From a virus: a stretch of DNA of 64,000 bases. A model generated the notes under the pieces. That model worked only from the letters and a program-made list of their open reading frames with translations. It did not search any database and had not been told where the DNA came from. A program made the translations under genes and the position numbers. Numbering within the stretch: position 1 is the stretch's first letter; each line of letters starts with the position of its first letter. Of the stretch, positions 9,046-31,809 are shown piece by piece. The stretch lies in IMG/VR virus record IMGVR_UViG_3300024294_000597; one strand, written 5' to 3'.

Positions 9046-9048
9046 ATA
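9042..9048 (+). promoter_or_regulatory. Putative T4-like late promoter (ATAAATA)
   Basis: ATAAATA 4 nt before ATG 9053; the same motif precedes several other genes. Confidence 0.45.
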
Positions 9049-9052
9049 CAGT

Positions 9053-10612: not shown

Positions 10613-11408
10613 TTATCCAAATATAATTAACGAAGAATTTAAGGATAGGCATAGTTATAGTTTTGATACAGTACCAGATACATTTGTAGATGCATTGATG
10701 AATGAACCTAGATTTCCAGAGTCAGCAAGATTCAGAAAAGTAAAATGGATTTCACATGAGTCAGGTATCCCTTGGTTAGTATTAGATGTACCGAAGTTTG
10801 ACTGGAAAGCATGTTACGATGAAGCAATGGCAGTATACGATGAAGCTATTCAACATAGAAAAAATGATTACGATGAAAGTAACCCTGATGATTACGGACA
10901 CAGAGGCTGGCGTAGTTTAACATTACATGGTTTAGGTAAACATGTATCTCAGCATTGGGATAGTAAAGATGTTAAAGCTATGGGTTTCGATTTTAAAAGT
11001 GAAGAAGAAGTAAGAGAAGCATATCATTGGACAGAGATTGCAGATAAATGTCCTAAGACAGTAGAAATGATTAAGTCTATCCCAGGTTATATGTCATTCG
11101 ATAGAGTTCGTTATATGTACTTAGAACCAGGAGGATACATTACTCCTCACAATGATTATGAACACAATAAGCTAGGACCATTGAATATATCGCTAAACAA
11201 TCCTGAGCATTGTTATTTTAAAATGATTGATGATAATGCATATGTTCCGTGGAAGCCCGGTAAGATGATTAAGATGAATGTAGGACACCAACATGCAGTG
11301 ATGAATGATACAGATGAAGTTAGAGTTCATATGATTGTTCATGGGCAGTATGGTGGTAGAGGTTATGAAGATATTATGTTAAACAGTTGGAATAAAATTA
11401 ATGAATAA
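10602..11408 (+). CDS. Fe(II)/2OG oxygenase, aspartyl/asparaginyl beta-hydroxylase-like
   Basis: RVRYMYLEPGGYITPHND (HxD), distal HAVMN, RVHMIVH. Confidence 0.8.
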   Translation: MTINYPNIINEEFKDRHSYSFDTVPDTFVDALMNEPRFPESARFRKVKWISHESGIPWLVLDVPKFDWKACYDEAMAVYDEAIQHRKNDYDESNPDDYGHRGWRSLTLHGLGKHVSQHWDSKDVKAMGFDFKSEEEVREAYHWTEIADKCPKTVEMIKSIPGYMSFDRVRYMYLEPGGYITPHNDYEHNKLGPLNISLNNPEHCYFKMIDDNAYVPWKPGKMIKMNVGHQHAVMNDTDEVRVHMIVHGQYGGRGYEDIMLNSWNKINE

Positions 11409-15630: not shown

Positions 15631-15631
15631 T

Positions 15632-16798
15632 ATGGATAATATAGATAAAGACTCTCTCAAGTGGTCACAATATGACTTTACTCAGATACCATTTGATGAT
15701 ATTGTCAAAGTAGGACAACGTACTCTATTATATAGAGATTTGTTTTCAGTATCTTGGTTACTAGGTCGTTTCTGTAACTACAAGTGTAGTTATTGTTGGC
15801 CTTATGCTAGGTCAGATAGAAAAGACCATAGACCTACAGAATTGTGTTTAGCAACTATTGATGAAATAAAGAGACAAGCACGTGCTAATGGATTTAATAG
15901 TTTTCACTTTAGTTTAAGTGGAGGTGAGCCTACATTCCATCCAGGATACCTTGACATGTTGGAGCATCTGGCTAATGACGTTCCTAACTGTAATTATACT
16001 AGTGTACACATGACCTCAAATATATCTCGTAAAATGGATTGGTTTAAAAAGTATTGCGAGATTGTAGGCAAAGTACACCGTGCCAGTATTACTGCATCAT
16101 TTCATAGAGAGTTTGCGGACAAAGTAGAGTTTGCAGATAAACTATTGTTATGCATGGAATATGATGTACAAGTAACAATCAATATGGTTTTAGTACCAGA
16201 TAGATTTGACGTTGATTGGGAGAATGCATTGTACTTTCATAATCGTGGTATAAACGTTACTCTAAAGCCACAGAGTGACCCTACAGCGTCTTTCGTTGTA
16301 AAGGGATATACAGAGAAGCAATTAGAAATTATGCAGAATGGTATGCCTCAACGTGCATACACAGATGATTTACAAAAGACAACAGGCAAAAAGATTATAA
16401 GACCTAAGCCAAAGAAAACTATGTGGAACCAAGACATAATGAATGGTGATGATAAAGGTGTCCCACCAATTATGCAAGTAGAGTTTGAAGACAGCAAGGG
16501 AAAGAAATGGTACATGGACCAAGCAGAACGTTTCAATGCTTTTAACTTTAATAAGTTCAAAGGTTGGGATTGTACGAGTGGGTTTAAAGGTATTATTATT
16601 AGAGAACCTGATGGCTCTATCAAGCGTTCATACAGTTGTTCGGATGAGCCTCTAGGATATGTAGAGAGTGGGTTCAAGTTGTTTGACGCACCTAAAGTAT
16701 GTATCAGTGAGAGTTGCGTATCAAGTGCGGATAGCAAGATACCTAAACGTGCACCAGGCTCAATGGTCAGGATATACCCTAATGAAAAGATTGGATAA
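15632..16798 (+). CDS. Radical SAM enzyme (type C)
   Basis: WLLGRFCNYKCSYC, SGGEPT, C-terminal Cys cluster. Confidence 0.9.
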   Translation: MDNIDKDSLKWSQYDFTQIPFDDIVKVGQRTLLYRDLFSVSWLLGRFCNYKCSYCWPYARSDRKDHRPTELCLATIDEIKRQARANGFNSFHFSLSGGEPTFHPGYLDMLEHLANDVPNCNYTSVHMTSNISRKMDWFKKYCEIVGKVHRASITASFHREFADKVEFADKLLLCMEYDVQVTINMVLVPDRFDVDWENALYFHNRGINVTLKPQSDPTASFVVKGYTEKQLEIMQNGMPQRAYTDDLQKTTGKKIIRPKPKKTMWNQDIMNGDDKGVPPIMQVEFEDSKGKKWYMDQAERFNAFNFNKFKGWDCTSGFKGIIIREPDGSIKRSYSCSDEPLGYVESGFKLFDAPKVCISESCVSSADSKIPKRAPGSMVRIYPNEKIG

Positions 16799-17702
16799 GA
16801 TAGATTTATTTACAAGACATTGTGAGAATAGACAACAGGCTATTCGTAAAGCAAAAGCTATTGTAGATGAAGATGTTATTAAAGTAGGAAGTTCAGTTAA
16901 TATCTTTAATGACTCTTATGACTTTTCAATACTACATGACCAAATGGCATTCATAGAACAATATGACAAGTGGATACATTCTAGTAAAAAGTTTAAGATA
17001 AAAGGGTTAGATAAGTTTCCTATACGATTAGTAACCAATGGTATTACTGATGCATTCACAGACTTCTATGAAAATGCAGTAGACTTAAACGTATTCAGAG
17101 GTGAGTACACGTATCATAAGGACTTAGGAATACCTGTATTAGAATCTTTCTCAGATATAGAAGAAAATATGTTTATTATCATAAGCTATCCATTTAGTGC
17201 TACAGGAAATGTACACCATGATTGGAGTAAGATTATGCGTATATGCGAGAAGAAAAATTGTGAAGTTTTTATAGACTGTTGCTTGTTTGGTGTCTCAGAA
17301 GTCGAGGCCTTGGATTTAAGCTACGATTGTATTACACATGTAGCTTTTAGCTTTAGTAAAACATTTTCAACTGGCGGCCTGCGTACAGGCATTCTATATA
17401 AGAAATTACGTGAACAGACACCATTGCAGTTACAGAATGAACATTACTATACACAAATGGCAGGAATGAAAATACATTCAGAATTAATGAAAGCGTTCAG
17501 TCCTGACTATATGTGTAATAAATACAGAGATAAGCAAGTTGAGTTATGCAAAAAACTAGAGATAGAACCAAGTGATAGTGTTATATTTGGCATAAGCAAC
17601 AAGGAAGAACACAAACACTTTGAAAGGGATGGGTATATTAATAGATTATGCCTGTCTTATGCATTGCAAGAACATGACAAGAAGTATGAGGATTTCGAAT
17701 GA
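16782..17702 (+). CDS. PLP-dependent aminotransferase/lyase-like protein (fold type I)
   Basis: SYPFSATGN, FIDCC, SFSKTF (PLP lysine), GLRTG; start moved to ATG 16782. Confidence 0.7.
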   Translation: MKRLDKIDLFTRHCENRQQAIRKAKAIVDEDVIKVGSSVNIFNDSYDFSILHDQMAFIEQYDKWIHSSKKFKIKGLDKFPIRLVTNGITDAFTDFYENAVDLNVFRGEYTYHKDLGIPVLESFSDIEENMFIIISYPFSATGNVHHDWSKIMRICEKKNCEVFIDCCLFGVSEVEALDLSYDCITHVAFSFSKTFSTGGLRTGILYKKLREQTPLQLQNEHYYTQMAGMKIHSELMKAFSPDYMCNKYRDKQVELCKKLEIEPSDSVIFGISNKEEHKHFERDGYINRLCLSYALQEHDKKYEDFE

Positions 17703-18319
17703 GTGTAGAAAAATTAGATATAGATTTTAATTACAAAAGACTTTTAGGTGAGTTTAAAGGATTAGGAATAGAACAGAAACTTATCGATAACGAAAAACAA
17801 ATAGCAGTTCAATGCAGAGAAGGCATTAAAGGGGAGAAGCAACTATTAGATAGTTGTGGTAGTTTGATATATGATTGGGATGATTATTTTCCTGAGAAAG
17901 ATTATGAAAACTCTGGTCCTAAAGTGCGTGACGTAATATTACAAGAGGAACAGTTTGATTTACTATGTGACCTATGGAAAGATACTTACATAGGGGAAGT
18001 AGTTAATGCGTTAAACGAGAAATATGGAGTCCTGAGAGGTAGATTTATGATGTTAGGTATGAAGACATGCTTAACTTATCATAAAGATAAGACGCCTAGA
18101 TTGCATATTCCTCTAGTAACACATGATGATTGCTTTATGGTTATAGATGATAAAGTATGTAGAATACCATATGGTGGTGTATATAAAGTTGATACAACTA
18201 AAGTACACACAGCCATAAATGCAAGTAAAATACTAAGAACCCATTTAGTGTTTTGTTTACCTAAACCTAAAATAGATAAATCAAAAAGATTACCTTGGGA
18301 AAATACTATACCTTTTTAA
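17699..18319 (+). CDS. Fe(II)/2OG oxygenase, Asp/Asn beta-hydroxylase-like
   Basis: TYHKD, RLHIPL, HTAIN, RTHLV. Confidence 0.75.
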   Translation: MSVEKLDIDFNYKRLLGEFKGLGIEQKLIDNEKQIAVQCREGIKGEKQLLDSCGSLIYDWDDYFPEKDYENSGPKVRDVILQEEQFDLLCDLWKDTYIGEVVNALNEKYGVLRGRFMMLGMKTCLTYHKDKTPRLHIPLVTHDDCFMVIDDKVCRIPYGGVYKVDTTKVHTAINASKILRTHLVFCLPKPKIDKSKRLPWENTIPF

Positions 18320-19197
18320 ACAGCCATTGGTGCTTTTATAAACGGTTCCGGGTCATAACCAACAAGTTCAAAGTCTTCCATTTTAAAATCATCTATTGAT
18401 TCTACAGTTCTGTTGATTTTTAATTTAGGGTATGGTTTAGCAGTTCTACCTAATTGTGTTTTGATTGCATCACTATGATTGACATATACATGCACATCAC
18501 CAAAGATATGATTCAGTTCACCTACACCTAGTTTGCATACATGTGCAATCATATATGTTAATAAAGAATATGATGCAATGTTAAATGGAACTCCTAAGAA
18601 TAAATCTGCACTACGTTGGTACATGTTACAATGTAATCTATTATCATTGGATACATAAAACTGTGCCATAGTATGACATGGAGGTAAAGCCATCATATCT
18701 ATATCACTTGGATTCCATGCATTAAGAATATGCCTACGTGATTGTGGATTCTCTTTAATACCTTTTATTAGTTCAGCTATCTGGTCAACTCTACGTCTAG
18801 CACCGTTGTATGAGCGCCATTGGACGCCATATACGGGTCCTAAGTTCTTTTCTGTATCAGTGTTAGTAAAGCCTAAGTCTTTGCCTTGATTATCTGCATT
18901 AGCAGTCCAGATAGTATTCTTGTCTATAAGTTCTTCTCTAGGTTTACCATAATGAATTTCTGCTAGTCTACGTTCATCACTGGAACCTTCTAAGAACCAA
19001 AGTAGTTCACTGAGTACTGCTTTAAAGTTTACTTTCTTTGTAGTTAGTAGGGGATATCCAGCTTCTAATTCAAAGTTTAAATGTGAAAAAAACTTACTAC
19101 GAGTTCCGGTACCAGTTCTTTCTTGGTCTCTTAGTTCTCCTTGGTTGATAACATAGTATAGCAGTTCTAAATATTCTTCTTCACTCCAATTAGACAT
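18316..19197 (-). CDS. thyA: Thymidylate synthase
   Basis: RTGTGT, ELLWF, GPVYG, ALPPCH, YQRSAD, FNIASY; uninterrupted. Confidence 0.97.
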   Translation of the reverse strand: MSNWSEEEYLELLYYVINQGELRDQERTGTGTRSKFFSHLNFELEAGYPLLTTKKVNFKAVLSELLWFLEGSSDERRLAEIHYGKPREELIDKNTIWTANADNQGKDLGFTNTDTEKNLGPVYGVQWRSYNGARRRVDQIAELIKGIKENPQSRRHILNAWNPSDIDMMALPPCHTMAQFYVSNDNRLHCNMYQRSADLFLGVPFNIASYSLLTYMIAHVCKLGVGELNHIFGDVHVYVNHSDAIKTQLGRTAKPYPKLKINRTVESIDDFKMEDFELVGYDPEPFIKAPMAV

Positions 19198-19642
19198 TCT
19201 TATTCCTCATTTTACTTTTTCTATTTACTCTTTCAACATATACAACAGCCCGTTTTAACATATCGATATCGTCATAAAATCCACCAAGTGTTCTGTTACA
19301 TTTATGACATAGCCAACCTTTGAATTCATCTGTATCATGGTCATGGTCTACACACCAAACACTGCGATTCTTTCCGCCTATCCCTTGTAACTCTTGTTCG
19401 TTCTTTAAACATATAGGACAACAAAAATCTTTAGCAGGTCTTACGTGTTGTTTTCTAAGTCTGGCTCTGACTGTTTGTAAATGCTTTTCGCATTTTTTAC
19501 ATTCATGTCTTTGTTTTCGTATACCAAAGTTTATTCCCCAACTAAAATTGTCAGATTCCAATATCTCATTGCATTTGGAACATTGTTTAAAAGTTGTTTC
19601 TGGTTCTTTATCACCATCGAAAAGATTATTAAAGCTATTCAA
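19190..19642 (-). CDS. Endonuclease VII-family (putative free-standing homing) endonuclease
   Basis: CPIC...VDHDH...GWLCHKCNRTLG plus N-terminal CxxC pairs; overlaps both flanking genes; TTG start at 19642 or 19660. Confidence 0.8.
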   Translation of the reverse strand: MNSFNNLFDGDKEPETTFKQCSKCNEILESDNFSWGINFGIRKQRHECKKCEKHLQTVRARLRKQHVRPAKDFCCPICLKNEQELQGIGGKNRSVWCVDHDHDTDEFKGWLCHKCNRTLGGFYDDIDMLKRAVVYVERVNRKSKMRNKNV

Positions 19643-20159
19643 TTCTCTGCCACACTTCAAATGTACAATGGGGTTCCGGGTGTGGGTTTAATTCTTTACT
19701 TGCTGTTAATTGTGTATAATCTTTTAAATAAGTTGTTATATCACATGTAGTATCCACTGAATGAACACCATCTATCCTTGTCAAATAAATCTTATCACAA
19801 AATTTATAAGCATCATCGTATAAGTGTTTACCACCAATGATGAATATTTCTTTACTAGGGTGTCTTGATTGAATTGCAGTAACAATATTTTCTAATGAAT
19901 ATTCTGTATGGTCATATAAATCATGGGCACCTGTGAATTCATCCATACTCTTAGATGTTATTACGTAATTAATTCTATTCTTAAGTGGGGCTATTTTGCC
20001 TAAACTTTTCCATGTATTTGAACCCATAACAACTACATTATCTGTAGTATGTTCCGAAAACCATTTCAAGTCTCGTTTGATTTTAGCCCAAGGTAAATCG
20101 TTGTTATAACCAATGCCACCGTAACTATCAGCGGCGAGAATCATATTAGTCGCCATCAT
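19635..20159 (-). CDS. folA: Dihydrofolate reductase
   Basis: GIGYNNDLPW, DLKWF, VVMGSNTW, PLKNRIN, FIIGG. Confidence 0.93.
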   Translation of the reverse strand: MMATNMILAADSYGGIGYNNDLPWAKIKRDLKWFSEHTTDNVVVMGSNTWKSLGKIAPLKNRINYVITSKSMDEFTGAHDLYDHTEYSLENIVTAIQSRHPSKEIFIIGGKHLYDDAYKFCDKIYLTRIDGVHSVDTTCDITTYLKDYTQLTASKELNPHPEPHCTFEVWQRIE

Positions 20160-22374: not shown

Positions 22375-23697
22375 TTATGCGGCTTCTTTGTGGTAGTAAG
22401 CGTGTTCACCGAACGGTGGGACGATTGAGTCACTGCCATGAATTACAAATAGTGTATCACAGTAATTTGGATTACCCCAACTACCAAATGGGTATCCATC
22501 AGTAAACATTACAAACTTATCAGGATTGATATCGTTTTGTTCCATGAAGTTAAAGTTACATTCAAAATCAGTACCACCTCCACCAACGATTTCATAATCT
22601 TTGATTTCTTCTTGGTTCATCGGAGTAAACTCCTTGAATGAAAATTCATTAACCTCAGTATCGAAAGTCCAAACTCTAAGTCTAAAGTCCTGAAACTGTT
22701 GCATGATGCCTCCAACTTCACCCATGAAGTCAGCTAACATTTTATTATCAATAGAACCTGAAACATCAAGTCCGATACCTAAGTCAACCATAGTATCATT
22801 GTCTTGACCTGGAAGATAAACACCCATAGACCTAGATTTCCTTGATTGACGCATCCATGTAAAATCTGATTTAAGTAAACTTAAAATAGATGTATTAAGT
22901 AACTGTCGCCAATCCATTTTAGGTTCTGTCATAGACTTAACAAGTCTTTTGATATCACCAGGCATATTACCAGCACCAGCAGTTTGAGCCGCTTGAATAA
23001 CAGCCTGTTTCATTTGGTCTTTAAGTTGTTTTGCTTCCTGTTTAGAAATTTTGATAGGCGCTTTACGTCCTGTAGGATCGTTACCACCTGTGCCACCTGT
23101 TTCATCATTGCCATTACCCATGATATGTTGGTCAAGTGTTTTTTTGTCTTCACCTTGACCTGTTTGTTTCAGATGTTGATAAATTTCCTCAGTGTATTTA
23201 CCATGATACTTAGGATCGAATAGTGCAGATTTTGGCATAACACCAATTCTACTTTCAACACAACCTTGATTAACTTTATAGTCAGCGGCTACATTCCAAA
23301 GTTGAGCATCACGATCCTCCTCTTCAAAATCGAATAGACGACCGCCCTCACCACAATGGTCATATACACAGTGAAGAACCTCATGACCTACTACAAAGTC
23401 AATCTCTTCCGGTGTTAAAGTTCTGAAAAAATCACAGTTATAATAAAAATGTTTGCCATCAACTGCGGCTGTTGGGCACCATTCTGCCTCAACTAGTTTT
23501 AATCGTGTAGCAAGTGTACCAAAGAACGGATGTTTGATAAGCATACGTACTCGACCGCCGACAATCATTTCTTTTACTTCTCGGTCAGTGTATTCGAATA
23601 CTACGGGTTCTTCTGAATTTTCATCTACTTCAATGCCTGCATCTTTCAATACATCATCTACTATTTCATCAACTGTTTTCTGATTTGATACTTGCAT
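22375..23697 (-). CDS. vWA domain / metallopeptidase-like protein (DUF2201 type), MoxR partner
   Basis: HEVLH zincin motif, DVSGS MIDAS, GGGTDF, FTDG; likely start MQV at 23697. Confidence 0.85.
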   Translation of the reverse strand: MQVSNQKTVDEIVDDVLKDAGIEVDENSEEPVVFEYTDREVKEMIVGGRVRMLIKHPFFGTLATRLKLVEAEWCPTAAVDGKHFYYNCDFFRTLTPEEIDFVVGHEVLHCVYDHCGEGGRLFDFEEEDRDAQLWNVAADYKVNQGCVESRIGVMPKSALFDPKYHGKYTEEIYQHLKQTGQGEDKKTLDQHIMGNGNDETGGTGGNDPTGRKAPIKISKQEAKQLKDQMKQAVIQAAQTAGAGNMPGDIKRLVKSMTEPKMDWRQLLNTSILSLLKSDFTWMRQSRKSRSMGVYLPGQDNDTMVDLGIGLDVSGSIDNKMLADFMGEVGGIMQQFQDFRLRVWTFDTEVNEFSFKEFTPMNQEEIKDYEIVGGGGTDFECNFNFMEQNDINPDKFVMFTDGYPFGSWGNPNYCDTLFVIHGSDSIVPPFGEHAYYHKEAA

Positions 23698-23730
23698 GTG
23701 AACGTTACCTTTATCTTTCATTATGTATAC

Positions 23731-23759
23731 ATATTAACACGATTCGCTGTATTGTCAAG
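23731..23759 (-). promoter_or_regulatory. Class G promoter CTTGACA-N6-CGAATCG-N3-TAATAT
   Basis: One of five copies with a fixed GANTC site and 16-bp spacer. Confidence 0.8.
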
Positions 23760-23940
23760 TTTTCAATACTTCATTAATCGCATTACGTTCTTTAATTAGT
23801 TGTTCCCTGGTTAAAGCAAACTTAGTGTAATAATCCATATCACTTGTAGTAATCTTATGATATTTACCATCCCTATTGCCTTTTACGTATTTAACTGGCA
23901 ATGACACATTTGATAGACTAGACAATGTAAGCACTCCCAA
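23755..23940 (-). CDS. Hypothetical protein
   Basis: 61-aa ORF; its stop TGA lies inside the -35 box of the next promoter. Confidence 0.45.
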   Translation of the reverse strand: MGVLTLSSLSNVSLPVKYVKGNRDGKYHKITTSDMDYYTKFALTREQLIKERNAINEVLKT

Positions 23941-24202
23941 TATGAGCAGAAGGTCTATTATGCTCTACCGGCTTAGTAGCATATTCATCTGAACCAGGAA
24001 CATATACACTTTCCACCATATATTCTACATCTTTTCCTAACATAGGGACTCTAACACCTCTGTCCAATATCTTTTGTATGATATCTTTAGCATGGTCACT
24101 ATCATAAGCAAACACTGATAATTGGTCAACTTCTCCAGCTGGAGCATCAACAGGTCTAATGTTTACTATATAGTCATTTTTTAGCGATTTTAGTGTTATC
24201 AT
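23918..24202 (-). CDS. Hypothetical protein
   Basis: 94 aa, AGAGAG ribosome site, own promoter. Confidence 0.6.
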   Translation of the reverse strand: MITLKSLKNDYIVNIRPVDAPAGEVDQLSVFAYDSDHAKDIIQKILDRGVRVPMLGKDVEYMVESVYVPGSDEYATKPVEHNRPSAHIGSAYIV

Positions 24203-24232
24203 TTGGTCTCTCTTTATTGTTAATATACTTAT

Positions 24233-24260
24233 ATTATACTACAGATTTACAACCTGTCAA
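24233..24260 (-). promoter_or_regulatory. sigma70-type promoter TTGACA-N16-TATAAT
   Basis: Perfect hexamers; spacer has AAATC rather than GAATC. Confidence 0.75.
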
Positions 24261-24283
24261 CCTTTTGAGAGATAAAAAACTAA

Positions 24284-25432
24284 TTATTTTATCAAAATAC
24301 TAGCATTTGTGCCACCAAAACCGAAAGAATTGCACAATACAGAGGTTATTTCTGCACGTTCTGACTTACTACGTATGTTTGGACTATAACCTTCTTCAAA
24401 CGCTTCTACGTTCACCGTAGGCGGTATAATAGCGTGTTTTAGAGACATAATAGACATAGCAAGTTCTACAGAACCAGCGGCGCCCATACAGTGTCCTAAC
24501 TGTGATTTGTTAGCAACTATGGGTACATCCTGTAATCCTAATCTATTGATAGCATCTAGTTCCGCATAATCTCCCATAGGTGTTGATGTTCCGTGTACAT
24601 TAATAAGACTAGGTGTTGTGTCTTTTAAAGCATCTTTCATGCATTCTTGTACAACCTTGCCGTCAGGATGAGGAGCAACAGTTTGATAGGCATCATTATT
24701 GATAGCATAACCATCAATCTCGCATATTGTATTGTCCGTCTTATGTTTACTCAATAAGAATAACGCACCGCCTTCACTTAATACTAATCCATCACGTTGA
24801 GTATCATAAGGTCTTGATGCTTTTTCTGGTGTATCATTATATTTGGTTGATAAGGCTCTGAGTTTTCCCATCTGTTTGAATGCATCTGGGTGTATAGTTT
24901 TATCTACAGAACCTGCTATTACATTATCTACCATACCCATTTCAATCATCATGGCCGCCCATATAACACTATAGATGCCTGTGCTACATGCAGTCAAGGT
25001 CATTGCACTAGCACCAGTTAAACCATATTTCATGTTTATATTATGTGCAATCATATCAGGACAATAGTGATAAATGTTATCAGCATTTTCCTTATTTGAC
25101 TGTAAAATTTCTAAGTACATAGAGAAGCCCGGAGATACAATAACACCTGTACGACTTTTATCTAATCCATCTAAGTTTATTTGACTTGCTAATGCTAAAG
25201 CCCATTGATTTGATTCTGGAAGTCTATCACGTTCTGACTCAGTTATGATAGGATATTCTTTTGCATCGAAATGAAACTCTCCAGCTACTTTGCTTCGTGT
25301 CCATCTACTTTCATTTGGGTCAAACTTTGTAATTGGCCCATATGCTACTTTGTTATTGGTAACTCCTTTCCATGTTTCCTGTAAATCACCGAAGGGCGTG
25401 AAACATGAAAGGTCGTTAATATATACGGTCAT
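24284..25432 (-). CDS. fabF: Beta-ketoacyl-ACP synthase II (FabF-like)
   Basis: TACST (Cys), VHGTST and GHCMGAAG (His, His), SRPYD, NSFGFGGTN. Confidence 0.9.
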   Translation of the reverse strand: MTVYINDLSCFTPFGDLQETWKGVTNNKVAYGPITKFDPNESRWTRSKVAGEFHFDAKEYPIITESERDRLPESNQWALALASQINLDGLDKSRTGVIVSPGFSMYLEILQSNKENADNIYHYCPDMIAHNINMKYGLTGASAMTLTACSTGIYSVIWAAMMIEMGMVDNVIAGSVDKTIHPDAFKQMGKLRALSTKYNDTPEKASRPYDTQRDGLVLSEGGALFLLSKHKTDNTICEIDGYAINNDAYQTVAPHPDGKVVQECMKDALKDTTPSLINVHGTSTPMGDYAELDAINRLGLQDVPIVANKSQLGHCMGAAGSVELAMSIMSLKHAIIPPTVNVEAFEEGYSPNIRSKSERAEITSVLCNSFGFGGTNASILIK

Positions 25433-26204
25433 ATTTTAAATCCGTTGCTATAATGTATTTGATGATTAATCCTGTTGGATCAAATTGATACCACTTCTCT
25501 TGTGTAGTGTAACTTAAACTGTTATTATGATGGTTATTATGCCAACCTTCACCGAATGTGATTAATGCTAAGAACCAGTTATTCTTACTATCATCACCTG
25601 TATCGTGTTCTGGCTTACCAAATATGTGTAGTAAATGTACAATACCAAATGTACCTACCCAAAATTGATACACGCCTGTAATACCTAATACATATCCCGG
25701 TAAGATTGGATCGATAAGAAATAGAATAATCATAGCAACTGTAATAATTTGAAAATAATAACGTTGCATAAATCTTACTTGCGGATCCATATATAAGTCT
25801 TTAAAAATTCTACGTTCAGGAGGAAAGTCTTCATAGAAACCCATTAAGTTTTCCCACCATGATTTTTCTCTTGGACTATGTATGTCCATACCTTCTACAT
25901 CGGAATATTTGTGATGTAATCTATGTCCACCTATCGTTGCTAATGGTTTACCTGGAAAGCCTAATGCGCCCCACCAGAGCAATAGTACCTGACGTTTCCT
26001 TCCAGTCTGATAACTTCTATGTGCCCAATATCTGTGCCAACCTGCAAATCCACCTATCATAGTTGTTATACAACCCCATGCAAACGAGTACCAAAAATAC
26101 TCTGGTGCGGTTATAATACTAAAGAGTAATACCAGGTGCAAAACAATCCATAGTGTTCGCATCTTCCAACCATAAGTATATTTTTCTAGTAGACTTTTAA
26201 TCAT
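25416..26204 (-). CDS. Membrane fatty acid desaturase (delta-9-like)
   Basis: His boxes HRYWAH, HRLHH, GEGWHNNHH; hydrophobic segments. Confidence 0.9.
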   Translation of the reverse strand: MIKSLLEKYTYGWKMRTLWIVLHLVLLFSIITAPEYFWYSFAWGCITTMIGGFAGWHRYWAHRSYQTGRKRQVLLLWWGALGFPGKPLATIGGHRLHHKYSDVEGMDIHSPREKSWWENLMGFYEDFPPERRIFKDLYMDPQVRFMQRYYFQIITVAMIILFLIDPILPGYVLGITGVYQFWVGTFGIVHLLHIFGKPEHDTGDDSKNNWFLALITFGEGWHNNHHNNSLSYTTQEKWYQFDPTGLIIKYIIATDLKYDRIY

Positions 26205-26811
26205 GTTTTTCTATCCTCTCTCCTGTTCTAAAGTTTCTCCAATTAAACTTCCAAACATCTTGCTTAATCCCATACAATGGGAAATCTTTATGTAATAGAG
26301 TTAGCTTATCTTCGTGTGGCCATGCCACATAAGCAAATCTCCATATCTTGTGCATCGTGCCACTTCTATCTTCACTGTGGTCTTGTGATGCTGTTGTAAC
26401 CACACAATCTGTGGCTCCTTGTTCATGTGCCCAATCTACCATAAAAGGAACTAATCTTGCAAATCCAAACTCATGATACATTCTTCTAGTATTCTGTCTA
26501 TCGTCTGCCATATTACGCCACTCAGGTAGTGTTGCCAATCTATAGTTTATCATATAACATGTATCATGTACATGTGGCAAGTAATGTGCACCTGCCATTG
26601 ATACTATCTTATCCTCGTGATAAACAAACCACCAGTTCTCTTGTGAACCCCATTTGCCAAACTTCAATGCTTTGAGACTAGCATTATTTAGTATACCTGC
26701 ATCACCACACTTATCGCAGAATTCTTCTAAGTCTGCTTTTAATGTGCTATCGTATTCTACTACTTTAAATTCGTAACCCTCTGCACCAGTGAATGTTTCT
26801 AATACTTTCAT
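26197..26811 (-). CDS. GNAT-fold acyltransferase-like protein
   Basis: IVSMAG strand and YRLATLPEWR (motif A-like), then FARLV...WAHEQG. Confidence 0.5.
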   Translation of the reverse strand: MKVLETFTGAEGYEFKVVEYDSTLKADLEEFCDKCGDAGILNNASLKALKFGKWGSQENWWFVYHEDKIVSMAGAHYLPHVHDTCYMINYRLATLPEWRNMADDRQNTRRMYHEFGFARLVPFMVDWAHEQGATDCVVTTASQDHSEDRSGTMHKIWRFAYVAWPHEDKLTLLHKDFPLYGIKQDVWKFNWRNFRTGERIEKHD

Positions 26812-27533
26812 TTCTTAGCCAATAACATTGGAATATAATATTTACCAGCCCAATCAGTTAGGTCATCACGTGACATATCAAGTCTTGCTGAATACTTGTG
26901 ATGTATGTCGTGACATCCCTCTCCCATCATCCAGATGTTTGAAAAGCCACCTAATCTAGCAGGCCCACCCTCTTTGTGTGCTGAGAAGTTTAACCAAGTA
27001 AGTGCTACCCACATGTGAGTAAAGTTAAATGCTTGCCATACAACTAACCACGGGCTGATTATTAAATGTATTAATGTGAATAATGCATATAGTTTCCAAT
27101 AGTTTCTATCAACATAAACTACATCACGTTTCTTTAATAGAAAACGTAAACTAATATAATCCTCTGGCGTCTTATAATGTCCTAACCACATTTTCCAGAA
27201 GCCTAGGTCAGCTGGATTATGCGTGTCCTTATCTGTATCTGAATTCTTATGATGATTTAAATGAGAGTACACATATTGTATTGGACTTCCATTTGCACTC
27301 ATAATAATACCATACAACATTGCATAGCGTCCTACGATATGAGGAACAAATTGGTCATGACATAACCATCGATGATATGCAATCTGTGACAATGCATTTG
27401 TTACACAACCATATAAGGTAAATGTTAATGCAAGTTGCCAAGATCCACCTGTAATAAAGTATGCCGGTATACCAATTAAGGTAATTGCTAACATGAAAAA
27501 TACTTTTACTGTTACTTTATTTTGATATGTCAT
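26808..27533 (-). CDS. Membrane fatty acid desaturase (second paralog)
   Basis: HRWLCH, HLNHH, GEGCHDIHH. Confidence 0.88.
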   Translation of the reverse strand: MTYQNKVTVKVFFMLAITLIGIPAYFITGGSWQLALTFTLYGCVTNALSQIAYHRWLCHDQFVPHIVGRYAMLYGIIMSANGSPIQYVYSHLNHHKNSDTDKDTHNPADLGFWKMWLGHYKTPEDYISLRFLLKKRDVVYVDRNYWKLYALFTLIHLIISPWLVVWQAFNFTHMWVALTWLNFSAHKEGGPARLGGFSNIWMMGEGCHDIHHKYSARLDMSRDDLTDWAGKYYIPMLLAKK

Positions 27534-29209
27534 TACTTCTTTAGTGATTCCTCTAATACTTCTTCGTGGCTTTTGCCATCAAACAAAAACTTTCTATGCC
27601 AATCGTATGCATGTGGAGCCAAATCGCCTTGTGCCTTACTTAATTTCTTGCAATACTCGAACATTATATCTGCTTTGTCTAACAGTTCTTTCTTAGTATT
27701 TAGTTCAACTGAATCATCAAAACACCCCATAGCAGTGGCTACATTCATCCACATATAATCAGGATATAAACTATTACCTATATGATTGTCAGGGTTTCTA
27801 TACTCTTCCCAACATGCTTTGGCATGATTGTGCTTCTTGCCATACTCTTTTTGTTTCTTCCAGAAATTAGTATCTTCTCTATTTGATAATGTATAATGAT
27901 ATGCAATAAAGTTTGCAGTATGGTCTTCTAATTTATTCATACTCTTATTATATGCATGTACACTTCCAGGTGATATAGTTTTATCCTCGTCCCATGCACG
28001 TTTTACTAATCTATCTAATATCTGTATGCCCCATTGTGTTATGTATAATGCATTACCTTCCATTGGTTCAATAAATGAATGACTCATTCCGATGCTTAGT
28101 ACGTTTTTATTCCAAGGAGTAACCATACGTCCTGCCTTCCATGAAATATGTTTTGGTGGTTTGATAAACTCATAACCTTCCCAATATTTCATAAACTTTG
28201 CTTTTGCATCTTCGACAGATATTTCAGTCTTATCAAAAATATAACCTGAACCCATTCTGTTATATAATGAAATAACAAAGTTCCAGCCTTCGTCTTGTGC
28301 ATACGTTTGTGTATACGGTTTGAATTCGTTATATATGTCCTTGTACTTTAGTGGACCAACAATAGCATCTTGTGTATGAATAAAATCGTAATCATGCCAT
28401 TCATTATTCATCCCATCCACTAATACTTTGTGGAAGCCTGAACAATCGATAAACAAATCACCTTCATGTTCTATGCCATCTTCCATTATTAGTTTTGTAA
28501 TGTATCCATCCTCATCTTTAATGATATCTTTGACATCACCAATGGAATGATTAACCCCTTTTGGTATGGCAACTTTATCTCTAATGATTTCTGGAAATCT
28601 ATTTGCATCTAAATGATATGTATATGCTGACCAGTCACCGACTAAGCAGTTATCATCCATATCAAATGGTGCCTTGTTACCTTTCATTAAATAATGTTGT
28701 TCATGCATATCCTCTGAAAGTTCATTAATGTTTTTTCTACCATCACGTACTAATTGCAACCAATAGTCGTTCCACTTATCATTTACTCCGGCTTCGCCTT
28801 TAGAATTAGTAAAGTAATCATCTGTAGTAAGTTGTCCATAAAAACTTCTGGTTAGATGTTTCTCAGGTAGTGCGAATGAAAATGAATAGTATTGTACATC
28901 TTCCTTTGGTGCATTCCAATGGTCTGTTACATGGTGTCGTTTACCTGGTGTACTCCAACCAACAAATTTGTTACCTAATTTATAAACTGAATTAGTATAA
29001 CTCATCCAGTCTCTTTCCTCAAGACCCATTGTTGATAATAAATCATTTACTTGAGGCACTACACTTTCACCTACACCTATTGTAGGAATGTTATCACTCT
29101 CAATTAAAGTAATGTCTAACCACGGGTGCTTATTTTTCATGTAACCTGCAGTGAACCAACCGTTTATTCCACCACCAACGATTACAAGTTTTTTTAGTTT
29201 GGCTTTCAT
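27533..29209 (-). CDS. Flavin-dependent tryptophan-halogenase family protein
   Basis: IVGGGING, IGVGES, YKLG (catalytic Lys position), FIDCSGF, FIEPME; WxWxIP is diverged to WNFVIS. Confidence 0.85.
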   Translation of the reverse strand: MKAKLKKLVIVGGGINGWFTAGYMKNKHPWLDITLIESDNIPTIGVGESVVPQVNDLLSTMGLEERDWMSYTNSVYKLGNKFVGWSTPGKRHHVTDHWNAPKEDVQYYSFSFALPEKHLTRSFYGQLTTDDYFTNSKGEAGVNDKWNDYWLQLVRDGRKNINELSEDMHEQHYLMKGNKAPFDMDDNCLVGDWSAYTYHLDANRFPEIIRDKVAIPKGVNHSIGDVKDIIKDEDGYITKLIMEDGIEHEGDLFIDCSGFHKVLVDGMNNEWHDYDFIHTQDAIVGPLKYKDIYNEFKPYTQTYAQDEGWNFVISLYNRMGSGYIFDKTEISVEDAKAKFMKYWEGYEFIKPPKHISWKAGRMVTPWNKNVLSIGMSHSFIEPMEGNALYITQWGIQILDRLVKRAWDEDKTISPGSVHAYNKSMNKLEDHTANFIAYHYTLSNREDTNFWKKQKEYGKKHNHAKACWEEYRNPDNHIGNSLYPDYMWMNVATAMGCFDDSVELNTKKELLDKADIMFEYCKKLSKAQGDLAPHAYDWHRKFLFDGKSHEEVLEESLKK

Positions 29210-29211
29210 TT

Positions 29212-30576
29212 TTACTCCACAAATTGTTCTTTGACTACGTGTCTCTGAACTTTGCCCATAGGATTTCTAGGTAGTGGATCTTTGGTAATAACAATTTCTT
29301 TAGGTAATTCATACTGAAATAATTTATCTTTAACAAAGTCCATCAACTCAAGACTATTTATCTCACTGTCCGCACTGACTACTGCAACAATTTCTTTTTC
29401 CCCTAGTCCTCTATCACGATATGTAACACAAACTTCGTTAACCTCTTCATGAGGTAATAACATATTTTCAATTTTAATAGGCGATACATTGAAACTGTTT
29501 ACTTTTATTAAATCTGTTTTACGTGATTTATAAAATAAAAGATTATGCTGAGTTTCTAATACATCACCAGTACACCAATAGCCATCATCATCTATAGGTG
29601 TTTCTTGATTCAGATATCCTTCTGTAACACAACTACCTTTAATCCAAGCAACACCATATCTATCTAATTTGAAATCATAGTTATCAGTAATATGAATTTG
29701 TAAAGGATGTGGATCATCTGGAGTTGCCAAGTGTGTAAACATTGGTACATGTGTTTCAGTACAGCCATACAAGTTTCTTAATGCAGGTGCACCTTTATCA
29801 AATAGTTCTTGTAGCATTTCTTCCGGACAAACTGTACTACCAAAACCTAACTCACGCCAATGAGACAAGTCTGCGTCTTTCCAACCACGTGTCTTAGACA
29901 GGGCCAACATCATTGCAGGAACCATAATACCTATCGTAGGTTTCATTTCGTTACAAATCTTAATAAACTTTCTGGGATTAAACATTTCACAAATTACTGT
30001 ACACCCTTTCATTAAACCAGGAAGTGTATAAAGATACAGACCACCAATAGTCCAAGGAGGAAGTTGTGAGAGTATTACATCATCAGATGTTAAAGTTTGA
30101 ATTAGAATGTTTTGTATTGAGCCTTGGACACATGCCATTCTAGTATGTGGGACTGCCTTAGGCTCTCCTGTAGTACCGCTAGTAAATATAACAGTATATA
30201 AATCATCTGCACCTTTGGCAAATACTAATCCTTTGTTATGAGGTTTTAGATTAGATGCATCATCCTCATTTAGAATAATATGATTTGGTTTACTGGCATT
30301 CTCAATACGAGATACCATACCTTCAGTTAGATTTGGCATAGTGGGCATGAATGTGACTCCTAACATATCACAAGCTAATACCATTCTTACATAATGATAT
30401 TCTTTTTCACTTGAAAATAGTAGACGCTCACCAGGCCTGATGGCAGTAGACAACGTAGCACCTAGTTTTTCAACACTGGTGATTAGTTCGTTGTATGTAT
30501 AACTCTTATCGTGGCAAATCAGGGCAGTCTTGCTACCGTGATTCTTTGCCTGTGCTTTTATTGTTTCCCAAATCAT
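29212..30576 (-). CDS. AMP-forming acyl-CoA/acyl-ACP ligase (ANL adenylation enzyme)
   Basis: FTSGTTGEPK, YGCTE, TGD, LPRNPMGKV. Confidence 0.9.
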   Translation of the reverse strand: MIWETIKAQAKNHGSKTALICHDKSYTYNELITSVEKLGATLSTAIRPGERLLFSSEKEYHYVRMVLACDMLGVTFMPTMPNLTEGMVSRIENASKPNHIILNEDDASNLKPHNKGLVFAKGADDLYTVIFTSGTTGEPKAVPHTRMACVQGSIQNILIQTLTSDDVILSQLPPWTIGGLYLYTLPGLMKGCTVICEMFNPRKFIKICNEMKPTIGIMVPAMMLALSKTRGWKDADLSHWRELGFGSTVCPEEMLQELFDKGAPALRNLYGCTETHVPMFTHLATPDDPHPLQIHITDNYDFKLDRYGVAWIKGSCVTEGYLNQETPIDDDGYWCTGDVLETQHNLLFYKSRKTDLIKVNSFNVSPIKIENMLLPHEEVNEVCVTYRDRGLGEKEIVAVVSADSEINSLELMDFVKDKLFQYELPKEIVITKDPLPRNPMGKVQRHVVKEQFVE

Positions 30577-30581
30577 ATCTA

Positions 30582-30610
30582 ATTATAACAAAAAAAGGGA
30601 GAGAAGTCAA
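30582..30610 (-). promoter_or_regulatory. sigma70-type promoter TTGACT-N17-TATAAT, probably giving a leaderless transcript
   Basis: The -10 box ends 5 nt before ATG 30576. Confidence 0.75.
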
Positions 30611-30624
30611 CACCTCTCTCCCTT
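30590..30624 (-). terminator. Rho-independent terminator overlapping the promoter
   Basis: AAGGGAGAGA-loop-TCTCTCCCTT followed by a T run on the minus strand. Confidence 0.75.
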
Positions 30625-30647: not shown

Positions 30648-31775
30648 TTATGCGTTATGAGCCTCGATAATTAGCTTACCGTATTTCTTAAAGAACTCCT
30701 CGATACAAGGAACCTTCCTAGGCTCAAGTGGAAGTTTGTAAACTTTTAGTGCAGTACGACCACCTAGAACAATCATTTCAGTTTCAAAGTTATCCATCAT
30801 GAACCTGAAAAAGTTATCAGCCATTTTGTACAACTCATCCATTTTGCCTTTGTTTTTCTCTGCATGTTCTTTCAACTCATAACATAGTGAAGCAGTTAGT
30901 GAGAACATAGCTGAGATTTCCTTAGCTTCCCTAGACACCGTTTTTACCTTACCATTTAAGATATCAGTTGGATTAGGAAGTTTACCAGAAATTGCTCGGT
31001 GAGCCATAAACTTAGTAGCAACACCATCACCAACAGTACCAGCAATTAAGTCATGCAGTTTACTATCATCGATATTTTCATCTTTCATTGGCATCAACTG
31101 TGATGCAAAAGTCCATGAACGAGGAGTTGCGAAAGCCCGTGATGCAGTTCGTGGGTCAAAGTTAAACAAGTCCATCTTATTAGATGTTAAGTAACCAACA
31201 ACATCAGAATGGATTTTGTTTTCAAGAGCCCAAGTCTGCCAATCTTCAAAGTCAACACCCATTTCTAAGTGAACGAAACGGTTAGCAAGTGGGCTTGGCA
31301 TACGATAAGCAACACCTCTATCACTCTCACGGTTACCAGCGGCAACAATAAGAACATTATCAGGTAGAGTGTAATTACCTAGACGCCTGTTAAGAATAAG
31401 TTGATAAGCCGCCGCTTGTACTGATTGCGGTGCTTGGTTCATTTCATCTAAAAACAATACAATGTTTTCAAACTGGTCAGCAAGTTCCTGACTAGGCAAA
31501 TCAGACGGTGTCGCCCAATCCATAGTATTTGTTTTCTCATTATAGTATGGGATACCTCGTAAATCAGTAGGTTCCATAAGAGCAAGTCGTAAGTCAATCA
31601 TATAACCTGAACGCTCTTGTGTGATTGAATCAACAATCTCAGATTTACCTACTCCCGGAGGACCCCAAATAAAGACGGGTCGTTGACGATTAAAAGCATA
31701 ATTAATTTCAGCTTTAATATCACTCGGACGTACAATTCGTACATCCATATCATTCATTGAAACTTGTGCAGACAT
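30648..31775 (-). CDS. MoxR-type AAA+ ATPase
   Basis: GPPGVGKS Walker A, LFLDE Walker B, AAGN, LANRF, TPRSW; likely start 31775. Confidence 0.9.
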   Translation of the reverse strand: MSAQVSMNDMDVRIVRPSDIKAEINYAFNRQRPVFIWGPPGVGKSEIVDSITQERSGYMIDLRLALMEPTDLRGIPYYNEKTNTMDWATPSDLPSQELADQFENIVLFLDEMNQAPQSVQAAAYQLILNRRLGNYTLPDNVLIVAAGNRESDRGVAYRMPSPLANRFVHLEMGVDFEDWQTWALENKIHSDVVGYLTSNKMDLFNFDPRTASRAFATPRSWTFASQLMPMKDENIDDSKLHDLIAGTVGDGVATKFMAHRAISGKLPNPTDILNGKVKTVSREAKEISAMFSLTASLCYELKEHAEKNKGKMDELYKMADNFFRFMMDNFETEMIVLGGRTALKVYKLPLEPRKVPCIEEFFKKYGKLIIEAHNA

Positions 31776-31809
31776 ATTTTCATTTCCTTTGTTTTGTATC
31801 ATTAACTAT

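Follow-up and report, generated by a model that had tools for sequence, protein, structure and literature searches.

A conserved operon of marine jumbo phages with a predicted role in acyl-chain tailoring

The 64,000-nt window analysed here (IMG/VR record IMGVR_UViG_3300024294_000597) is part of the genome of an uncultured marine jumbo phage and carries an accessory operon encoding an ANL-superfamily ligase, a flavin-dependent halogenase, a GNAT-fold protein, a FabF-like ketosynthase (KS) and two membrane desaturases. We propose, with a probability of roughly 45%, that this operon, together with phage-encoded carrier proteins and a PPTase, constitutes a minimal thiotemplated acyl-tailoring line in the infected cell.

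A conserved gene island in jumbo phage genomes

The DNA polymerase of the window phage was assigned to phrog_262 and its nearest relatives were jumbo phages; a complete relative had direct terminal repeats and a genome of 342,607 bp. In all loci compared, the cassette was located between genes for a MoxR-like ATPase and a DUF2201/VWA protein (Table 1). Among 80 loci, this slot was found full, variant (occupied by other genes or by cassette variants) or empty, and in sister phages devoid of the cassette the ATPase gene directly adjoined the DUF2201 gene. The cassette is an auxiliary (accessory) gene island in a bona fide phage genome. Its six tightly coupled minus-strand genes (24284–30576), whose ORFs had been placed correctly in the initial annotation, are at most 2 nt apart and overlap by up to 17 nt. 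The described arrangement of abutting or overlapping genes behind a single promoter, with a terminator upstream, was indeed present, and the terminator/promoter element was retained in relatives with compensatory changes in the stem. The –35 box of this promoter is situated in the loop and 3' arm of the hairpin. Only 5 nt separate the end of the –10 box from the ATG of the ligase gene, suggesting that the cassette mRNA is leaderless or near-leaderless.

Table 1 Features of the cassette and its flanking genes (positions in the window)
Feature	Position	Strand	Evidence or remark
MoxR-like AAA ATPase	30648..31802	-	Upstream flank, slot boundary, outside cassette
Terminator-like hairpin	30595..30624	-	13-bp stem and T-run; ends MoxR-like ATPase gene
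Sigma-70-type promoter	30582..30610	-	TTGACT-17-TATAAT, TG upstream
ANL-superfamily acyl/aryl acid ligase, 454 aa (core gene 1)	29212..30576	-	Pfam AMP-binding 6.4e-47, AMP-binding_C 1.8e-07
Flavin-dependent halogenase, tryptophan-halogenase family, 558 aa (core gene 2)	27533..29209	-	Pfam Trp_halogenase 4.3e-88; phrog_2928 1.7e-90
Membrane desaturase, SCD-like, 241 aa (accessory)	26808..27533	-	His boxes HRWLCH, HLNHH, HDIHH invariant
Virus-specific GNAT-fold acyltransferase-like protein, 204 aa (core gene 3)	26197..26811	-	AF2 model and structural matches
Membrane desaturase, SCD-like, 262 aa (accessory)	25416..26204	-	Pfam FA_desaturase 3.4e-11; SCD1 7e-20
FabF-like beta-ketoacyl synthase (KAS II type), 382 aa (core gene 4)	24284..25432	-	Pfam ketoacyl-synt N and C, ~1e-26
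DUF2201 metallopeptidase-like/VWA protein	22375..23721	-	Downstream flank, slot boundary

The concern that these genes might never co-occur in related genomes was dispelled: wherever a cassette locus was not truncated, the four core genes were found together and in the fixed order ligase–halogenase–GNAT–KS, as seen in 20 loci identified via the GNAT and in 25 of 80 identified via the ATPase. The core was complete in all lineages, which have diverged to 41–60% identity, while individual modules were swapped between lineages, namely a halogenase allele (L053) and a block of GNAT and desaturase (L057). Orthologous cassettes contained no, one or two desaturases of three types in three positions; the desaturases are accessory, not core, components. 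No isolated phage in the collection possessed a genuine ligase or KS homologue, the matches being unannotated records or host-type fabB/fabF.

Catalytic residues were invariant across 18–20 orthologues, and the dN/dS values of the cassette genes (0.06–0.25), indicative of purifying selection, were similar to those of the flanking conserved genes. Furthermore, at least 90% of the cassette's words were recovered in six seawater metatranscriptome runs, and one RNA library yielded a single 5.7-kb contig spanning five genes and part of the sixth, although such contigs may also originate from carried-over DNA. The contigs broke at the upstream hairpin, with upper ends at 30555–30566 in three runs, and their ends matched the predicted promoter and terminator. 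Depth in the RNA libraries differed 3–6 fold between neighbouring gene blocks. The cassette is one conserved and selected phage operon, probably transcribed, rather than a chance juxtaposition.

Core enzymes and accessory desaturases

The catalytic motifs highlighted in the initial annotation, that is the P-loop of the ligase, Cys149/His280/His314 of the KS and the three His boxes of either desaturase, proved intact in the window and invariant among orthologues. Based on its sequence, the ligase is a member of the ANL superfamily. Its P-loop (A3, TSGTTGxPK), the A5 glutamate E274, the A7 aspartate D338, the A8 hinge residues R352/D355 and the A10 lysine K442 were invariant in 20 orthologues. 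The best PDB matches were feruloyl-CoA synthetase, 4-coumarate-CoA ligase, malonyl-CoA synthetase and MenE, with a benzoate ligase also among the PDB neighbours; all NCBIfam matches, including those to substrate-specific equivalogs, scored far below their cut-offs, the best being PRK06187 with 207.6 bits against 476.

The halogenase matched Trp 5/6/7-halogenases (~1e-57) and VirX1 (7.1e-49) in the PDB, and its GxGxxG motif (GGGxxG), K77 and E381/E384 were invariant in 20 orthologues. In the alignment with Thal, which stops at query residue 456 of 558 and thus leaves the C-terminal region uncovered, YK77LGNKF corresponded to YK79M and FIEPME to FVEPLE. The catalytic lysine (K79 of PrnA, RebH and Thal) and the conserved glutamate are both retained. 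The canonical WxWxIP motif is replaced by G-W-N-F-V-I-S in the window enzyme and by W-x-F-x-I-S/P/T in 20 of 20 orthologues.

The 204-aa protein showed no match in the Pfam, NCBIfam or PHROG sequence families. According to its AF2 model (pLDDT 91.9), it is a GNAT-fold protein: fold matches reached a Foldseek probability of 1.00 (E 1e-5), the best VIA match a Z of 11.7 (rmsd 3.5, 143 residues aligned) and viral GNAT-like clusters an Atlas TM of 0.75. Its structural neighbours formed a flat list of about 50 generic GNATs (Z 10.2–11.7), among which FeeM (2g0b; Z 10.5, rmsd 4.0, 159 residues) did not stand out above the others. At the site that, judged by eye, is equivalent to the Q/RxxGxG/A CoA-pyrophosphate motif, the family consensus reads R-G-M-A-S and the window protein W-R-N-M-A-D. 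A profile search revealed 136 representative relatives. In one of them (P0247/L047) the GNAT shares a polypeptide with an ANL domain and a KS comes next; P0206/L048 and L065 are fused to or neighbour a Trp_halogenase, and L078 and L133 adjoin short ANL proteins. Since these associations recur in unrelated contexts, they suggest that the GNAT is functionally tied to the other core enzymes. Further members of the family adjoin radical SAM or oxygenase genes and lack a ligase or KS.

From its sequence, the KS can be classified as a two-domain, thiolase-fold condensing enzyme of the FabF/KAS II type with an intact Cys-His-His triad. C149, H280, H314 and K309 were invariant in the orthologues, and the best PDB matches were of the FAS type (FabF, 8e-57). 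Nevertheless, the score of 256.8 bits fell below the cut-off of the FabF equivalog (TIGR03150, 493.75). The closest relatives comprised about 90 metagenomic clusters of at least 54% identity, followed by bacterial FabF at 33–35%. The His boxes (HX4H, HX2HH, HX2HH) and the similarity to SCD1 assign both desaturases to the SCD type. The 241-aa desaturase, which is missing from four-gene cassettes, gave no Pfam match on its own; its family profile matched the acyl-CoA desaturase SCD1 (5e-15), and PF00487 was detected in relatives sharing 53% identity. In the 262-aa desaturase, the boxes HRYWAH, HRLHH and HNNHH were invariant.

Carrier proteins, predicted pathway and alternative readings

The initial annotation had seen no ACP and therefore assumed that host ACP or CoA would be needed. 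Within the window the former observation holds, but a PP-binding gene was detected on the same contig, 5.4 kb before the window start. Moreover, PP-binding genes occurred in 10 of 11 KS-containing cassette records and in none of 15 relatives (as long as 270 kb) that lack the cassette, the records being related, mostly fragmentary contigs that are not phylogenetically independent. Radical SAM genes were abundant in cassette and cassette-less records alike. Within the phage clade, an AcpP-like ACP (LGADSIDTVEIV; ACP1) is encoded along with other carrier proteins, and the complete 342.6-kb relative and one more cassette record also possess a PPTase of the AcpS type, so that reliance on host ACP no longer has to be postulated. 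The AcpP-like ACP would match the FAS-type KS, and a cognate carrier thus appears to be available. The operon itself contains no carrier-protein gene; the nearest are 27–48 kb away, and because of this distance and the location of some beside radical SAM genes, the carrier proteins may serve other pathways.

The search of the remaining genome, proposed for ACP, PPTase and flavin reductase, was thus successful for the first two within the phage clade, whereas PF01613 flavin reductases gave no match in the complete relative and four other records. A nitroreductase-family gene adjoins ACP1 and is a candidate flavin reductase. Genes for FabD (malonyl transferase), FabG (ketoreductase) and FabA/Z (dehydratase) were not found in the complete relative, nor does the operon contain a thioesterase gene. 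Given these gaps, much must come from the host, and the term "full assembly-line operon" used at the outset went too far.

We envisage that the ANL ligase would convert a fatty or aryl acid into the acyl-AMP and load it onto CoA or a holo-carrier protein, whereupon the FabF-like KS could add C2 units from host malonyl-ACP and, where present, the SCD-like desaturases would introduce double bonds. The halogenase, supplied with reduced flavin by the host or another reductase, may act on an electron-rich carbon of the acyl or aryl unit or of the amine acceptor. Finally, the virus-specific GNAT would offload the acyl group to an amine. The predicted product would be an N-acyl compound bearing a halogen, such as a lipo-amino-acid-like molecule; overall, an N-acyl product that derives from an acyl chain and may be halogenated is still the best reading. 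The alkyne/polyyne-type logic invoked initially could not be upheld as the conserved function, because the desaturases (none, one or two per cassette) are dispensable and variable in type and position. A thiotemplated desaturase/alkyne cassette (JamABC, polyyne) was likewise rejected, as desaturases are absent from many orthologues and the operon has no ACP.

Alternatively, the cassette might remodel membrane lipids, its auxiliary metabolic genes boosting or editing the fatty-acid pool of the host. The ligase would then bring free fatty acids back onto ACP or CoA, the KS elongate them and the desaturases raise unsaturation, while the GNAT would form an N-acyl (ornithine-lipid-like) membrane lipid and the halogenase play a minor or separate role. 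A KS of the FAS-type KAS II rather than the PKS type, desaturases resembling SCD1 and an AcpP-like phage ACP are consistent with this scenario, as is the lack of reductive enzymes of the phage's own, by which the chains would go through host FAS II. Lipid desaturases are also known auxiliary genes of cyanophages. We nonetheless consider remodelling rather unlikely: the desaturases, the most obvious membrane editors, are dispensable, whereas halogenase and GNAT are fixed. Moreover, the halogenase gene is translationally coupled, located mid-operon and under purifying selection, and members of the GNAT family accompany halogenases in other elements as well.

A bolder version of the proposed tailoring line, which we regard as unlikely, is that a lineage of marine jumbo phages makes its own halogenated lipo-amide during infection with phage-encoded carrier protein, PPTase, ligase, KS, halogenase and GNAT, the GNAT taking the acyl group directly from the ANL adenylating domain, and that this compound is released to act outside the cell as a toxin, deterrent or signal. 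If true, a virus would itself be the source of an ecologically active small-molecule natural product.

Modification of a macromolecule appears improbable. The GNAT would in this case place an acyl group, possibly halogenated, on a lysine or the N-terminus of a phage or host protein or on another polymer, resulting in virion lipidation or host takeover, and the MoxR-ATPase/VWA pair might take part. Many of the top GNAT neighbours are protein N-acetyltransferases (Pat, RimI, NatA) and the cassette always lies between the ATPase and VWA genes. However, the flat structural list singles out no protein acetyltransferases, the adjacent ATPase–VWA pair of the sister phages implies that the pair works without the cassette, and no candidate substrate gene accompanies it.

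It is very improbable that unrelated auxiliary genes with no common pathway have gathered in a recombination hot spot. Although the variable content of the ATPase–VWA slot and the module swaps (L053, L057) are in line with such a site, the core has kept its order and completeness across lineages at 41–60% identity, its genes are translationally coupled under one shared promoter, and two of the associations, an ANL::GNAT fusion with a KS behind it and a GNAT next to a halogenase, are seen again in unrelated contigs. That the GNAT is a regulator which acylates the ligase at its catalytic A10 lysine, in the way Pat/AcuA enzymes modify acetyl-CoA synthetase, can scarcely be credited: its structural neighbours do include Pat-type GNAT domains, among them PatZ (9it0) and one in complex with the C-terminal domain of acetyl-CoA synthetase (4u5y), and ANL enzymes are its commonest partners, but several of these (341 aa, 308 aa and the P0247 fusion) lack the C-terminal subdomain and hence the target residue, and Z-scores fail to separate Pat from other GNATs.

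Comparison with known systems

The proposed acyl-tailoring line can be likened to several known systems. In the cyanobacterial jamaicamide pathway, JamA-JamB-JamC and the halogenase JamD combine an ANL enzyme, a His-box desaturase, a carrier protein and a flavin halogenase with a downstream KS, and this starter cassette provides a halogenated unsaturated acyl starter. In this composition it resembles the phage system. In the phage, however, the desaturases are optional and SCD-like, the carrier gene is tens of kb away, the KS is free-standing and FabF-like instead of part of a PKS module, and a GNAT is a fixed member. The mycobactin lipidation genes mbtK-N encode the FAAL MbtM, the ACP MbtL, the acyl-ACP dehydrogenase MbtN and the GNAT N-acyltransferase MbtK, and they follow the same logic as proposed here, in which a ligase charges a carrier with the acyl chain, a double bond is introduced and the chain is finally passed to an amine by a GNAT. 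The phage cassette additionally contains a KS and a halogenase, membrane di-iron desaturases replace the acyl-ACP dehydrogenase and the phage GNAT has no sequence-family match.

The N-acyl amino acid synthases FeeM/NasY and the LuxI-type synthases exhibit a GNAT-like fold, as does the phage protein, and use acyl-ACP, a donor that would fit the co-occurring phage ACPs, but the phage GNAT has no Pfam match to the corresponding families. Bacterial KAS II (FabF), which acts with AcpP and AcpS, shares fold and triad with the phage KS, and the phage clade likewise encodes an AcpP-like ACP and an AcpS-type PPTase. Compared to cellular FabF, the phage KS is 33–35% identical, about 30 residues shorter and unaccompanied by FabD, FabG and FabZ.

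VirX1 of cyanophage Syn10 is likewise a phage-encoded enzyme of the Trp-halogenase family. Homologues from cyanophages and pelagiphages are 26–33% identical to the window halogenase. A cyanophage cluster containing a halogenase, for which a halogenated amino-acid/sugar metabolite was predicted (Iyer et al. 2021, PMC7824862), shows that biosynthetic clusters with such an enzyme have been predicted computationally in phages before. In contrast to the cassette described here, none of these halogenases has a ligase, GNAT or KS linked to it.

Composition and conservation of the cassette

The initial annotation had proposed a phage-encoded biosynthetic mini-cluster of six genes, and all six open reading frames were recovered, all of them in the same orientation. 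Neighbouring genes were separated by gaps of at most 2 nt or overlapped by 1–17 nt.

Genes of the cassette in the window
Gene product	Coordinates	Strand	Length
ANL ligase	29212–30576	minus	454 aa
Trp-halogenase-family flavin halogenase	27533–29209	minus	558 aa
SCD-like desaturase	26808–27533	minus	241 aa
GNAT-fold protein	26197–26811	minus	204 aa
SCD-like desaturase	25416–26204	minus	262 aa
FabF-like ketosynthase (KS)	24284–25432	minus	382 aa

Pfam searches matched AMP-binding and AMP-binding_C in the ligase, Trp_halogenase in the halogenase, FA_desaturase in the larger desaturase and both ketoacyl-synthase domains in the KS, which was assigned to the FAS type by family and structure matches. 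The smaller desaturase gave no match in a single-sequence Pfam search; it carries three His boxes, and a profile built from this protein and its relatives hit the acyl-CoA desaturase SCD1 at 5e-15 (7e-20 for the larger paralogue). The closest structures of the ligase were aryl and short-acyl CoA ligases, so that the starter could equally well be an aryl or a fatty acid.

The window encodes a family-B DNA polymerase (PHROG phrog_262) whose nearest isolates, at 41–48% identity, were jumbo phages, e.g., Sinorhizobium phage Phosso, Agrobacterium phage Atu_ph07, GAP32 and CBB. The record that contains the window is a fragment of 71 kb; a relative (L007) with 83–92% identical cassette proteins has a complete genome of 342,607 bp with direct terminal repeats. 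All holders of the cassette originated from marine or seawater metagenomes. When related loci were collected from the GNAT side, the order ligase–halogenase–GNAT–KS was found in 20 out of 20, between genes for a MoxR-like ATPase and a DUF2201/VWA protein. A survey from the ATPase side comprised 80 loci, many of them near-identical contigs from different samples, so that the counts are not independent. The full core was present in 25 loci, and another three ended after the ligase where the contig was cut off. Seven loci carried reduced ligase-centred variants with a 341–348-aa ligase devoid of the C-terminal subdomain, mostly accompanied by the GNAT and sometimes by the halogenase or a second ANL fragment. 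The cassette was missing from 17 close relatives (ATPase 78–85% identical), most of which had the ATPase and VWA genes directly adjacent, and from 26 distant ones. The genes thus do co-occur in related genomes. Because the flanking MoxR/VWA genes also persist where the cassette is missing, the idea that the cassette depends on them was dropped.

Cassettes contain no desaturase, a single one (preceding the GNAT or following the KS) or a pair, of three types in all, indicating that the desaturases are accessory. An alkyne/polyyne logic, as suggested earlier, was therefore not upheld as the conserved function: desaturases are dispensable and absent from many orthologous cassettes. At one locus (L053 12595–14268) the halogenase allele was only 65% identical to that of the window, compared to 84–93% for the neighbouring cassette genes, and its dS of 1.7 exceeded their values of 0.3–1.0. 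The allele marks a module swap within the operon and shows that modules have been exchanged.

Among 18–20 non-identical orthologues, the catalytic residues were invariant in the KS (Cys149, His280, His314, Lys309), the ligase (P-loop, Glu274, Asp338, Arg352, Lys442) and the halogenase (GxGxxG, Lys77, Glu381/384), as was every His box of the desaturases. Lys77 of the halogenase aligned with Lys79 of Thal, and the WxWxIP motif was altered to W-x-F-x-I-S/P/T in all orthologues. Free L-tryptophan was not adopted as the halogenase substrate; the ThaL alignment stops at query residue 456 and leaves the C-terminal region uncovered. Pairwise dN/dS ranged from 0.06 to 0.25 across all six genes, resembling the flanking genes. 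We conclude that marine jumbo phages do carry this cassette as an accessory operon and that it is conserved.

The interval from the KS to the VWA gene varies as well. Four-gene variants (L011 11816–13407) encode here a conserved 271-aa protein to which no family was given, also present in reduced ligase + GNAT variants, and a 176-aa protein with an HD-type (H...HD) motif recognized by eye. The corresponding region of the window (23755–24260) contains a 94-aa ORF (23918–24202) with no family match, preceded by a perfect 12/12 TTGACA-16-TATAAT promoter (24260–24233). The closest relatives (L006–L008) have only 48 bp at this position, indicating a small insertion specific to the window's genome.

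Predicted promoter and probable transcription

The upstream terminator and consensus promoter described in the initial annotation were both recognizable in the sequence. A hairpin with a 13-bp stem, followed by a T-run, separates the ATPase stop (30648) from the ligase ATG (30576); TTGACT is located within the hairpin loop and 3′ arm and is followed, 17 nt on, by TG-n-TATAAT. The same layout precedes the ligase in all cassette variants, with varying stem sequences and preserved complementarity. Because the –10 box of these variants ends 5–9 nt upstream of a conserved Met-Ile start, the cassette mRNA is predicted to be leaderless or near-leaderless. In a relative without the cassette (L062), this element precedes another gene; the hairpin-promoter element hence belongs to the slot rather than to the cassette. 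Near-consensus sigma-70 promoters with the –10 box ending 5–9 nt before the ATG, and without a Shine-Dalgarno sequence, were seen at 30582/30576, 31810/31802 and 23731/23721 of the window. Judging from these sequences, the phage may make use of leaderless mRNAs generally.

At least 90% of the sampled words of the cassette were present in six seawater metatranscriptome runs. A single 5,705-nt contig from one RNA library covered positions 24852 to 30556, contigs ended at 30555–30566 in three RNA libraries, and a separate contig began at 30639, inside the ATPase gene. Neighbouring gene blocks differed 3–6 fold in depth in four of four runs, and the listed contigs left gaps within the KS gene (about 24200–24800). 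These contigs are consistent with transcription from the predicted promoter, while neither proving it nor excluding DNA carry-over. The cassette is probably expressed.

Elsewhere in the window, a 156-aa Endonuclease VII/HNH-type gene (19190–19660) separates the genes for DHFR and thymidylate synthase; in relatives these two genes directly overlap. An RNA-library contig (depth 75) joined 19208 to 19644, omitting exactly the 435-nt endonuclease element. An Rfam search of this element gave no match and no intron. From its sequence, the element looks like a free-standing homing-endonuclease polymorphism.

Carrier proteins and the partners of the GNAT

The statement that no ACP was visible held for the window, where no PP-binding gene occurs, but not for the contig, where a PP-binding gene lies 5.4 kb ahead of the window start and adjoins a radical SAM gene. 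The complete relative (G001) has three PP-binding genes. Next to the gene for its AcpP-like ACP (LGADSIDTVEIV; 79 aa; near 34.1 kb), an IscA/HesB-like protein and a flavoprotein of the nitroreductase family are encoded (L043 5029–6364, G001 33.0–34.4 kb). The flavoprotein is a candidate for the flavin reductase that the halogenase otherwise lacks. Two carrier proteins are of the GIDSLDSIE type, and the one at 245 kb adjoins a radical SAM gene. The suggested search for ACP, PPTase and flavin reductase thus succeeded in part: relatives yielded PP-binding genes and, near 316.0 kb in the complete relative, an AcpS-type PPTase, but no PF01613 flavin reductase. The latter, FabD, FabG-type SDR and FabA/FabZ were absent from the complete relative and the four fragments searched, and no second KS was found in the complete relative.

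PP-binding genes were present in 10 of 11 records with a KS-containing cassette, compared to none of 15 relatives lacking the cassette (records of up to 270 kb) and none in one record with ligase and GNAT only; the PPTase was seen in two cassette records only. Records with and without the cassette are both rich in radical SAM genes, so that the presence of carrier proteins follows the cassette and not the radical SAM arsenal of the clade. Very numerous throughout the clade, and located at 1–18319 in the window, radical SAM genes numbered 10 in the 71-kb own record (G000), 17 in the complete relative and 15–19 in cassette-less relatives. A radical SAM enzyme (~309–324 aa) accompanied the GIDSLDSIE-type carrier (77–78 aa in G000 and G004) at G000:C1:2210–3279 (5 kb before the window start), near 245.1–246.2 kb in G001 and near 66.3–67.4 kb in G004. 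This pair was seen in cassette-bearing phages only and may share the chemistry of the cassette.

The GNAT assignment stood at the level of fold, the protein being predicted at pLDDT 91.9 from an alignment of 20 homologues, but not at that of sequence family, as no Pfam, NCBIfam or PHROG model matched. Its closest structure clusters were viral. An exhaustive profile search retrieved 136 representative relatives, and the alignment, used as a back-translated pattern, found no relative in 185,579 prokaryote genomes. Several relatives are associated with other core enzymes: P0247 (L047) is an ANL domain fused to the GNAT with a KS directly after, P0206 (L048) a GNAT fusion followed by Trp_halogenase; L065 contains a short ligase, GNAT and halogenase, and in loci of the L078 type and L133 a short ANL protein adjoins the GNAT. 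P0166, P0162 and P0158 have radical SAM or oxygenase neighbours without ligase or KS. These neighbourhoods identify an adenylating enzyme as the recurrent partner, which favours a biosynthetic donor–acceptor relation.

In L047 (903–8588) the fusion measures 578 aa, and genes for an iodothyronine-deiodinase-family protein (PF00837) and a beta-propeller lactonase lie a few genes downstream; the locus is possibly a counterpart, cellular or viral, of the core trio that has a further halogen-related enzyme. The ANL proteins of L078 (11266–14635) and L133 (5078–6606), 308–341 aa long, lack the whole C-terminal subdomain. A second ANL fragment (227 aa) lies nearby in L078, and a paralogue of this fragment, 53% identical, is encoded at another place in the complete phage genome. 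Such pairs may represent an adenylating enzyme that is unusual in being split or completed by the GNAT.

Proposed chemistry and relation to known systems

Assigning to each enzyme the usual chemistry of its family, we infer as the most economical reading that the ligase would activate and load an acid, the FAS-type KS would extend the chain with malonyl-ACP from the host, the optional SCD-like desaturases would act on it, the halogenase would operate with flavin reduced by the host, and the GNAT would offload the acyl group onto an amine. We give this general load–extend–tailor–offload scheme a probability of roughly 45%. Membrane remodelling by the same enzymes is an unlikely alternative explanation, and acylation of a macromolecule appears less likely still. 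That the six are simply unrelated genes is improbable. Least credible is a regulatory, Pat-like GNAT, against which the truncated ANL partners argue, as they lack the subdomain bearing the A10 lysine.

Literature searches revealed no description of the cassette; the nearest item was a predicted halogenated-metabolite cluster in cyanophages (PMC7824862). The halogenase was the only enzyme with homologues in isolated phages, namely cyanophages including Syn10 (VirX1) and pelagiphages (26–33% identity). The cassette gave no blastn match in 50,697 phage records, and tblastn with KS and ligase against the same records returned unannotated records or host-type fabB/fabF only (23–35%), hence no genuine isolate homologue. 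The KS belongs to a large, purely metagenomic clade on contigs of up to 338 kb, with an immediate drop to bacterial FabF at 33–35% identity.

A whole clade of giant marine phages keeps under selection, and apparently transcribes at sea, a multi-enzyme set for loading, chain extension, tailoring and offloading, with its own carrier proteins and PPTase. If a discrete halogenated acyl compound is made, viruses would count as a direct source of organohalogen or lipid natural products in the sea. The virus-specific GNAT, repeatedly fused to or paired with adenylating domains without C-terminal subdomain, could represent a new coupling of adenylation and acyl transfer, and the natural four-, five- and six-gene variants offer a comparative series for the chemistry. 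Auxiliary genes of phages mostly encode individual enzymes that supplement the metabolism of the host; the cassette is a new variant among phage-encoded biosynthetic and auxiliary gene sets. Compared by function and not by sequence, its closest analogies are presumably the JamABC/JamD starter cassette of jamaicamide and the mycobactin mbtK-N lipidation locus.
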